Source of the DNA: Thermotogota bacterium
GTDB taxonomy: Bacteria > Thermotogota > Thermotogae > Petrotogales > Petrotogaceae
Direction: 5' to 3'
NCBI GenBank assembly: GCA_051748045.1
Contig: JBNJGY010000026.1
Location: 1 to 26,635, forward strand
DNA length: 26,635 nt
Positions 52 through 23,104 of the stretch are shown here, piece by piece. The position numbers were made by a program, and so were the translations under genes. The notes under the pieces were generated by a model. It saw nothing but the letters and a program-made list of their open reading frames with translations, was not told the origin of the DNA and did not search any database. Position 1 is the first letter of the stretch; every line of letters begins with the position of its first letter.

Positions 52-73
52 AAAAAGGGAGCCATTGGCTCCC
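52..73 (-). terminator. Rho-independent terminator after S1-domain gene
   Basis: Minus strand GGGAGCC-aat-GGCTCCC hairpin (73-57) followed by T5, just after the stop codon at 81. Confidence 0.8.
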
Positions 74-80
74 CATAATT

Positions 81-446
81 TTATCTTCTTTTATTTCCTC
101 TTTTTTTATCCATATGTTTTCTAAATTCTGATATTTTTCTATCACTGTCTTTTAAAAATCGACTCAATTTCTTTTCAAAATTCTCTGAATTTTCTTTACC
201 AGTATCTTCATCTGTATCTTTTAAAGATATTTCGTATTTTCCATCTTTTGTTTTACCTATGACTTTACCTTTTACTTCTTGTCCAACTTCTAAAAAATCA
301 GAAACATTTTTTACATACTTTTTTGATAATTTTGAAATATGGACAAAACCTTCTTGACCATTTTCAACTTCCAAAAACGCACCAAATTTTTTGATGTCCT
401 TAACTTTGGCATTAATAATTGTACCTTGGGCAATACTTTCGCTCAC
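81..446 (-). CDS. S1 RNA-binding domain protein (YabR/YugI-like)
   Basis: S1 signature (V.DIKKFGAFLE...EGFVHISKLS.KYV.NV.DFLEVGQEV...ISLK) plus YabR-like basic tail FEKKLSRFLKDS...KKRG; GTG start with GGGGT SD. Confidence 0.88.
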   Translation of the reverse strand: MSESIAQGTIINAKVKDIKKFGAFLEVENGQEGFVHISKLSKKYVKNVSDFLEVGQEVKGKVIGKTKDGKYEISLKDTDEDTGKENSENFEKKLSRFLKDSDRKISEFRKHMDKKRGNKRR

Positions 447-451
447 AATAA

Positions 452-614
452 TACCCCGCCCTTCTTAAATAACTTAGATTTTTCACGATAACCTTGCCAA
501 GTCGTGATATCGTCTTTCGACGGCCCGGGTCCAGGCTATGGACTTCACCTCCGAAAATTTCTTTTAATTTGACAGATGGATTCCAATTGGAAGCAAGGCC
601 CACCCGCCTACCTC
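452..614 (-). ncRNA. Candidate structured RNA (cis-regulatory leader of the S1 gene, or 6S-like RNA); family not recognised
   Basis: ~48% GC over 481-610 in otherwise very AT-rich intergenic DNA; several stems, some with G-U pairs that work only on the minus strand; CGUC-GAAA-GACG GNRA hairpin. Confidence 0.6.
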
Positions 615-626
615 TTTTATATTTTC

Positions 627-651
627 AAAAGGGAGCTAAGCTCCCTTTTTT
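627..651 (-). terminator. Terminator hairpin after rpmE (symmetric, possibly bidirectional)
   Basis: AAAA-GGGAGC-taa-GCTCCC-TTTTTT immediately after the rpmE stop; T4 on the minus strand. Confidence 0.75.
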
Positions 652-652
652 C

Positions 653-865
653 TTATTTTTTAAGATAATCTTTATATTTGTTCTTAAATTTCTGAATTCT
701 ACCTTCTGTATCTAAGAATCCTGAACCTTCTCCTTTGTAGAAAGGATGACACTCAGAACAAACATCTAATCTAAAATTGTCTGCTGTTGAATAAATCTTG
801 TGTTCAGCTCCACATGCACATTTAACTGTTATTAAGTTCATTTCAGGATGAATTCCATTTTTCAT
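653..865 (-). CDS. rpmE: 50S ribosomal protein L31, Zn-binding type
   Basis: MKNGIHP...CACG...[11 protein letters not shown]...DTEGRIQKF; CxC + CxxC retained; GAGGTG SD. Confidence 0.97.
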
Positions 866-904: not shown

Positions 905-934
905 ATTATAGCATATCACAAAAACAACTGTCAA
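905..934 (-). promoter_or_regulatory. sigma70/sigmaA promoter of rpmE
   Basis: TTGACA (934-929), 18-nt spacer, TATAAT (910-905) with extended -10 TG. Confidence 0.85.
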
Positions 935-14125: not shown

Positions 14126-14203
14126 GGGCTCGTAGCTCAGTTTGGTCAGAGCCCTCGGCTCATAACCGAGTGGTCGGTGGTTCGAGTCCACCCGAGCCCA
14201 CCA
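14126..14203 (+). tRNA. tRNA with CAT anticodon, most likely tRNA-Ile2 (lysidine)
   Basis: Acceptor GGGCTCG/CGAGCCC, A73, encoded CCA; anticodon arm CTCGG-CTCATAA-CCGAG; TTCGAGT T-loop; G1-C72 paired so not an initiator tRNA. Confidence 0.93.
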
Positions 14204-14204
14204 T

Positions 14205-14237
14205 AAAAATACCAGGATTTTCCTGGTATTTTTTTTT
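14205..14237 (+). terminator. tRNA terminator
   Basis: AAAAATACCAGGA-ttt-TCCTGGTATTTTT plus further Ts. Confidence 0.85.
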
Positions 14238-14335
14238 ATTTCAAATATAATTGTATAACCAATTGATTCATTTGTCAAATTTATTTAACAATTATTAACA
14301 TTTAGGTTTTTTATAATATATTGTATGAAAAAATA

Positions 14336-23027: not shown

Positions 23028-23104
23028 TGGCGCGTTTGGCGGGATTCGAACCCACAATCTTCGGATCCGAAGTCCGACGCTCTATCCAGTTGAGCCACAA
23101 ACGC
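23028..23104 (-). tRNA. tRNA-Arg(TCG)
   Basis: GCGTTTG/CAAACGC acceptor, G73, CCA; anticodon arm TCGGA-CTTCGGA-TCCGA; TTCGAAT T-loop. Confidence 0.95.

Follow-up and report, generated by a model that had tools for sequence, protein, structure and literature searches.

A new structured RNA in the probable 5' leader of an S1-domain protein gene in one family of Thermotogota

The window analyzed in our study, a stretch of 26,635 nucleotides from a Thermotogota bacterium (contig JBNJGY010000026.1 of assembly GCA_051748045.1), carries a GC-rich element on the minus strand of the 206-nt spacer that separates rpmE from a gene for an S1-domain protein, and this element is a real, new family of structured RNA with a narrow distribution. 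We are highly confident that positions 453-609 (minus strand) constitute the structured 5' leader, of about 160 nt, of the mRNA of this gene, whose product is CvfD/GSP13-like. Our best explanation for it, to which the sequences compared lead us to give slightly less than an even chance, is that it would be a translational control leader of the S1 gene, in which a CCUUGC strand would choose between a decoy loop and the true Shine-Dalgarno (SD) sequence. The general kind of such a leader, a pseudoknotted 5' region acting on the ribosome-binding site (RBS), is known; what is unusual here is the decoy design and the presence of an orphan, perfect SD.

The element stands out by its base composition, as the preliminary description of this DNA had already pointed out: the GC content is 0.48 in the intervals 451-550 and 501-600, compared with 0.12-0.22 in other nearby non-coding DNA (901-1100), and it is 0.23-0.36 in the flanking genes. 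The product of the downstream gene, of 121 amino acids, matches the Pfam S1 domain with an E value of 5e-15, and the NCBIfam models for S1-domain RNA-binding protein, GSP13, and CvfD with E values of 1e-19 to 1e-25, all of them under the curated cut-offs. This gene is monocistronic and has its own terminator, and hisS comes after it as a separate unit. Ahead of rpmE, at 905-934 (minus strand), there is a perfect sigma-70-type promoter (TTGACA, 18 nt, TATAAT, with TG before the -10 box; 12 of 12 matches). The features of the locus are the following.

653-865, minus strand: rpmE, the upstream gene, for ribosomal protein L31 (open reading frame; above the cut-offs of Pfam PF01197 and of the NCBIfam L31 model).
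627-649, minus strand: terminator-like hairpin of rpmE (10-pair stem by a plus-strand scan; on the minus strand, the same hairpin and then UUUU).
616-621, minus strand: TATAAA, a possible -10 box, overlapping the AAAAG kept upstream of P1 in relatives (weak assignment).
609, minus strand: possible 5' end of the transcript (end of an RNA-library contig; weak hint).
600-608, minus strand: 5' arm of P1 (GGCGGGUGG), with its partner at 571-579.
593-598, minus strand: CCUUGC, 5' strand of the pseudoknot and candidate anti-SD element (invariant except for CCUUGU in genus g10).
581-592, minus strand: P2 hairpin, UUCC-AAUU-GGAA, of variable length (covariation).
571-579, minus strand: 3' arm of P1 (CCAUCUGUC), with its partner at 600-608.
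553-570, minus strand: A/U-rich linker, predicted to be single-stranded (unpaired in consensus folds).
545-552, minus strand: GGAGGUGA, an invariant SD-like octamer, 98 nt before the start codon (conservation and 16S complement).
523-544, minus strand: conserved C/G-rich core (CC..GCC.GG.CCC.GGC), nearly invariant (conservation).
511-522, minus strand: P4 hairpin, CGUC-GAAA-GACG, of variable length (covariation).
483-507, minus strand: P5 hairpin, UCACGA/UCGUGA, whose 13-nt loop holds GCAAGG (492-497), the 3' strand of the pseudoknot (pairing and compensatory change).
462-482, minus strand: spacer between P5 and the RBS block.
453-461, minus strand: conserved block GGGCGGGGU at the RBS, 7-8 nt before the start codon (conservation).
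81-446, minus strand: gene of the 121-aa S1-domain protein, CvfD/Ygs/GSP13-like, with a GUG start at 446-444 (open reading frame and domain matches).
56-74, minus strand: terminator of the S1 gene (8-pair stem, then a T run).

The structure was tested on a 22-sequence alignment (A8) with five helices and the pseudoknot, against 500 shuffles and against the same helices with their partners slid. As a whole it is 96.4% paired, compared with 82.7% in the shuffles (0 of 500 as high) and 31.6-46.7% with slid partners. Most of the minus-strand fold drawn in the preliminary description is present, and its strand is assigned on account of the many G-U pairs. Changes on both sides were found in all nine pairs of P1, in all five of P2, and in four of the five pairs of P4, counts that overstate independence since A8 was fitted to the model and its sequences are kin; compensatory changes in P1 and P4 are also seen in an unfitted MAFFT alignment. 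P5 is 97% paired; one of its pairs differs on both sides (UCAC/GUGA to UUAC/GUAA, in g10), and four show changes of the G-U type. The long-range pseudoknot that had been proposed between the P5 loop and the 5' part of the element, joining CCUUGC (598-593) to GCAAGG (497-492), is paired in 100% of the cells, and it includes one double change (CCUUGU/ACAAGG, again in g10) and one change from U-A to U-G in one genus.

Two other parts of the earlier fold did not hold up. The hairpin GUCCA/UGGAC (543-529) forms in this genome, yet relatives keep only an invariant CC/GG, and it is 63.8% paired compared with 64.3% in the shuffles, with zero changes on both sides; the 6S-like rod finds no support in the consensus fold. 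We also rejected a core hairpin GCCUG/CRGGC, which breaks at its sole variable pair and leaves 8 unpaired cells. In the resulting model of the leader, the 5' domain (P1 enclosing P2) shows CCUUGC in an internal loop, and P1 closes only the first ~38 nt. The length of P4 ranges from 10 to 19 nt across relatives, with differences that are not multiples of three, and this, together with the lack of a conserved start codon, indicates that this region of the leader is non-coding.

The preliminary description had also proposed conservation and covariation in relatives as a check, and both were found, with the covariation in P1, P2, and P4. A BLASTN search against 60 relatives located the core, at 73-95% identity, in 15 genomes belonging to seven genera of the same family; all 16 loci (those of the 15 relatives and of this genome) keep rpmE, the element, the S1 gene, and hisS in this order, and the element lies directly upstream of an S1-domain gene in all 17 loci examined. 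A covariance model built from 12 sequences gave exactly one match per genome in 19 of 151 Thermotogae genomes. These are the present genome and 18 of the 25 others of its family, covering nine of its ten genera, with E values of 1e-13 to 1e-31 in the 18 relatives; the model identified the element in 0 of the 125 genomes of ten other families. Within the family, genus g9 has it in 0 of 7 genomes (the sole hit scores 16.5 bits, E 0.69). The two genes are nevertheless adjacent, with a spacer of only tens of nucleotides, in five of five g9 genomes and in four of five genomes of the sister family, and an L31-like open reading frame is found directly upstream in 15 of 19 loci of seven further families, at gaps of 9-82 nt. 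Since g9, the sister family, and the further families keep the gene pair without the element, we consider the latter to have joined an already old rpmE-S1 gene pair, in one family only.

Wider searches point to the same distribution. A strict core pattern across the genomes of 185,579 species returned 14 loci, including 7 true model matches (78-135 bits), all of them in assemblies labelled Thermotogota or Petrotoga; a further weak match (21.5 bits) in a high-GC genome was taken as chance. In metagenome contigs, 22 loci were obtained, 17 of them true and mostly duplicates. The earlier statement that the element fits no known RNA family stood as well when Rfam 15, RF00013 included, was searched at gathering thresholds: nothing matched the element in the window, nor any of 11 homologous loci from other genera. 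At E values up to 10, the matches in the locus fall only on the rpmE terminator and were considered noise, and the models of preQ1-II and SAM-II gave no match either. Literature searches on Petrotoga riboswitches and structured RNAs turned up no mention of the element, and neither did the main texts of two papers on genome-wide discovery of RNAs (PMC11109978, PMC8632094), whose supplements may list it. Few regulatory RNAs are known in this phylum, and the element adds to them a well-supported family of structured RNA that was previously uncatalogued; its reach is limited to one bacterial family. Elsewhere in the window, two tRNA genes were identified (14126-14200, plus strand, and 23031-23104, minus strand). 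A match to 'HPnc0260 antisense RNA' at 14166-14300 (minus strand; 60.1 bits for a threshold of 59) is probably a tRNA artefact, because the portion that aligns well overlaps, in antisense, the first of the two tRNAs.

Regarding transcription, a contig from a metatranscriptomic RNA library (run X3, record 4) spans positions 295-609 unbroken, which comprises coding sequence and leader up to the 5' edge of P1. The contig stops at 609, 7 nt past TATAAA, and it is from this one contig that the 5' end was assigned; as contigs can neither prove a start nor exclude DNA, it gives a weak hint of a leader-plus-gene transcript and of its 5' end. The contig carries 12 extra letters unmatched to the window, for which an adaptor, a template switch, or a chimera may account. 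Three other RNA runs (X2, X4, and X6) cover parts of the genes only. In relatives, AAAAG is conserved 6-8 nt ahead of P1. The promoter scan found no sigma-70-type pair of -35 and -10 boxes between rpmE and P1, and for this reason TATAAA is a weak candidate for a -10 box. No terminator was detected by the scan between P5 and the start codon of the S1 gene.

Our best explanation is backed by the conservation and compensatory changes, the fixed single-copy locus, the missing terminator, and the contig described above, by the short spacers with a canonical GGAGG in relatives that lack the leader, and by the RBS block. The pattern GGGC-RR-GG is kept there in all genera, and, in the sequences compared, the block is far more conserved than an SD requires. 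The hexamer of this block (GC-RR-GG), which ends 7-8 nt from the start codon, is complementary to CCUUGY at six of six positions in 16 of 18 sequences, with g4 (5/6) and g5 (4/6) falling short, and it is identical to the hexamer of the P5 loop in genera g6 and g7; none of the other downstream hexamers, 46-56 per sequence, reaches 6/6 with CCUUGY in any sequence. As the RBS hexamer is a near-copy of the loop, and both are complementary to the CCUUGC strand, the P5 loop and the RBS may compete for it, and CCUUGC would then be an anti-SD element. With the pseudoknot formed, the decoy loop of P5 would hold CCUUGC and the RBS would be free; with the pseudoknot open, CCUUGC could pair with the true SD region, and the site would be closed. 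The balance between these two states would be set by an effector.

We lean slightly toward the existence of such a decoy/anti-SD switch, on the pattern of complementarity just described. The RBS block is predicted to be mostly paired in all 11 representatives (mean unpaired probability of 0.06-0.41, that is, 59-94% paired), and its predicted partner differs between species: it is CCUUGC in three representatives, the CC..GCC core in another three, and neither of these in the remaining five. Because the folding predictions disagree on this partner, the switch is one that we infer. It is also important to note that CCUUGC, the loop, and the RBS block are almost invariant, so that the helix sequestering the SD is supported by compatible pairing and by A/G variation facing U, with no double changes. 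Further points count against our best explanation: the switch model assigns no role to GGAGGUGA or to the conserved core, and the 5' end derives from a single contig.

The effector that we favor is the encoded S1-domain protein, which would bind its own pseudoknotted, A/U-rich leader in a form of autoregulation; by analogy with other systems this is a tentative proposal, and we hold it with less than even confidence. The element is located in the 5' UTR of a gene whose product carries an S1 RNA-binding domain. The proteins related to it, CvfD, Ygs, and GSP13, are stress-induced. Passages of a study on CvfD report a post-transcriptional control, 'potentially by an autoregulatory mechanism' (10.1101/2020.06.23.167635), and describe no cis element, so that the leader would be the first candidate control element for the single-domain S1 proteins of the CvfD/GSP13 kind. 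In the part of a further work that deals with the S1 fold, this fold is described as favoring pseudoknots, many of which it binds, and A/U-rich single strands (PMC7708055). The protein encoded here scores below the cut-offs of all the named S1-domain families, which counts against our best explanation.

Known leaders offer partial parallels to the proposed mechanism. The rpsA (S1) and rpsO (S15, with a pseudoknot) genes of Escherichia coli have autoregulatory leaders and encode RNA-binding or ribosomal proteins. The element resembles them in being a structured 5' UTR of a gene for an RNA-binding protein, with a pseudoknot and with involvement of the RBS; it differs from them in that it has no similarity to any Rfam leader and that its gene encodes a single-domain, CvfD/GSP13-like protein and not ribosomal protein S1. 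In the preQ1-II and SAM-II riboswitches, a pseudoknot decides the accessibility of the SD, and the SD itself is inside the aptamer. A pseudoknot would also decide SD accessibility in the present leader, but here it is a decoy copy that the putative aptamer contains, and one shared anti-SD would pair with either the decoy or the SD. The leader would be a variation on the SD-sequestering switches that combines one anti-SD with a decoy copy of the RBS, carried by the loop of a pseudoknot, and with a perfect orphan SD some 95 nt upstream.

An alternative, which we consider unlikely, is that the element is a riboswitch of a new class for a small molecule or an alarmone, with the pseudoknotted fold and the invariant nucleotides at its junctions as the aptamer, whose ligand would lock the pseudoknot and keep CCUUGC off the RBS, turning translation on. 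Its conservation is indeed aptamer-like, with 31 invariant columns among 10 genus-level representatives, of which 15 fall outside the helices. The conserved core is flanked by three helices that vary and covary, a pseudoknot is present, and this aptamer-type fold is located in a 5' UTR with a candidate expression platform. Nevertheless, no metabolite is suggested by the only gene controlled, which encodes an S1-domain RNA-binding protein and is monocistronic, with a terminator of its own; the element is also confined to a single family.

Special attention must be given to the octamer GGAGGUGA, which is invariant in 22 of 22 sequences and is the exact complement of UCACCUCC in the 3' tail of the 16S rRNA of the four relatives examined (4/4); a search for the 16S in this assembly with four short motifs did not find it. 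In all 18 sequences compared, the distance from the octamer to the start codon is 91-102 nt, and the 19 nt ahead of it are 74-95% A+U. No consistent intramolecular partner was found for it: its best duplexes, of -4.9 to -10.9 kcal/mol, involve a site that differs by species. Two candidate roles were rejected. A small open reading frame after GGAGGUGA would have no conserved start, the triplet 5-6 nt further on being AUA, AAC, AGC, AUC, AUU, GUA, or GCA. A split RBS, with GGAGGUGA brought beside the start codon by a helix CC..GCC/GGGC..GG, is unlikely on spacing, as its geometry (3 plus 7-9 nt plus the helix end) was reasoned to be too long; this helix also lacks covariation. A comparison of four leaders with their own 16S, made with rRNA mimicry in mind, showed that, besides the SD/anti-SD complement, they share only words of 6-9 nt at chance level.

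These properties of GGAGGUGA suggest another reading, to which we assign a low probability, namely a leader for ribosome standby or recruitment, possibly temperature-sensitive and without a dedicated ligand. The 5' pseudoknot, the A/U strand, and GGAGGUGA would pre-load a 30S subunit about 95 nt upstream, and this would move to the weak, structured, non-AUG RBS when it opens. The invariance of the octamer, its complementarity to the 16S 3' tail, the lack of a conserved internal partner or start codon, and its distance from the start after an A+U-rich stretch are all consistent with this, as are the pseudoknot in which the 5' structure is engaged, the predicted pairing of the real RBS, and the start codons, which are mostly non-AUG (GUG in 12, UUG in 5, and AUG in 1 of 18 sequences). 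The layout resembles that of tisB, whose standby site, in the sections of two works that describe it, consists of a 5' pseudoknot together with a single-stranded stretch that lies 100 nt upstream of an RBS that is sequestered (PMC7708055; PMC6690012). Both share a pseudoknotted 5' structure and a single strand some 100 nt ahead of the RBS, which in the S1 leader is predicted to be structured; unlike in tisB, the single strand here includes an SD of 8 nt with perfect complementarity, the gene does not encode a toxin, the partner in the pseudoknot is a copy of the RBS, and there is no homology.

In the relatives without the leader (five of five g9 genomes, five of five genomes of family f2, and 19 loci of other families), the spacer is short and a canonical GGAGG immediately precedes the start. 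They manage with this ordinary, strong SD beside an identical GUG start, which speaks against standby, as the need for such a site is not obvious. Moreover, the sequestration of the RBS is a prediction that is inconsistent between species. This reading can coexist with our best explanation of a choice between decoy loop and true SD. Another reading, which we regard as improbable, is a ribosome-sensing switch: an invariant, unpaired GGAGGUGA would bind the 16S 3' tail of idle 30S subunits, remodel the pseudoknot, and shift the decoy/SD choice. If this were true, the synthesis of a ribosome-associated, S1-like factor would track the pool of free small subunits, and the ribosome would be the ligand of an mRNA switch.

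It is very improbable that the leader is a 5' mRNA stabilizer of the STAB-SD type, in which a 30S subunit parked on GGAGGUGA would protect the mRNA from 5'-to-3' decay. According to the passages of a work on the STAB-SD of cry3A, an SD-like sequence far upstream pairs there with the 16S 3' end, starts no translation, and blocks RNase J1 (PMC4113751). The S1 leader similarly has an upstream SD-like sequence that is complementary to the 16S 3' end, has no start codon, and directs no initiation. In contrast to cry3A, the element sits in a larger covarying structure, and a stabilizing role leaves its covarying helices, its pseudoknot, and its decoy copy of the RBS unexplained. In addition, the RNase J model TIGR00649 gave no match in this 99.65%-complete genome; in 14 control genomes it matched all but Thermotoga maritima. 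As the STAB-SD mechanism blocks RNase J1, and no RNase J was found, such a stabilizer is unlikely here.

The preliminary description had offered two readings, a new cis-regulatory motif and a divergent 6S RNA. The first gained from the lack of an Rfam match, the fixed position, the absence of an intervening terminator, and the contig joining leader and coding sequence. The second, or any independent small RNA merely adjoining the S1 gene, is hardly credible. What can be said for it is that this is a GC-rich structured RNA in an AT-rich genome without an annotated 6S, that the scans gave no clear promoter or terminator delimiting its transcript, and that RF00013 finds nothing in this genome (E up to 1) or in all 26 genomes of the family, so that 6S is unassigned there and any 6S of the family escapes the current model. 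However, RF00013 gives no match in the interval 400-700 of the window at E up to 10, the element has neither a rod with a central bubble nor a helix joining its 5' and 3' ends, no terminator precedes the S1 start and, as the one RNA contig suggests, the element continues into the S1 mRNA, and its absence from g9 (0/7) and from ten other families (0/125) would be odd for a housekeeping RNA.

The spacers between rpmE and the S1 gene in relatives contain two other sequences. In seven loci of genera g6, g7, and g10 (L031, L032, L034, L038, L044, L045, and L049), a conserved run, GGGGGGGAUUU, occurs in the first ~60 nt past rpmE. It sits within an inverted repeat (CUCUAAU...AUUAGAG in g6) and may be the rpmE terminator of these genomes or a further element. 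In a genome of family f4 (G052, locus L129), the 82-nt spacer has no obvious SD adjoining the start; some 60 nt ahead of the S1-gene AUG it contains a GGAGGUG, shown in a hairpin loop and followed by two more hairpins, and this sequence may be an independent orphan SD in an S1-gene leader.
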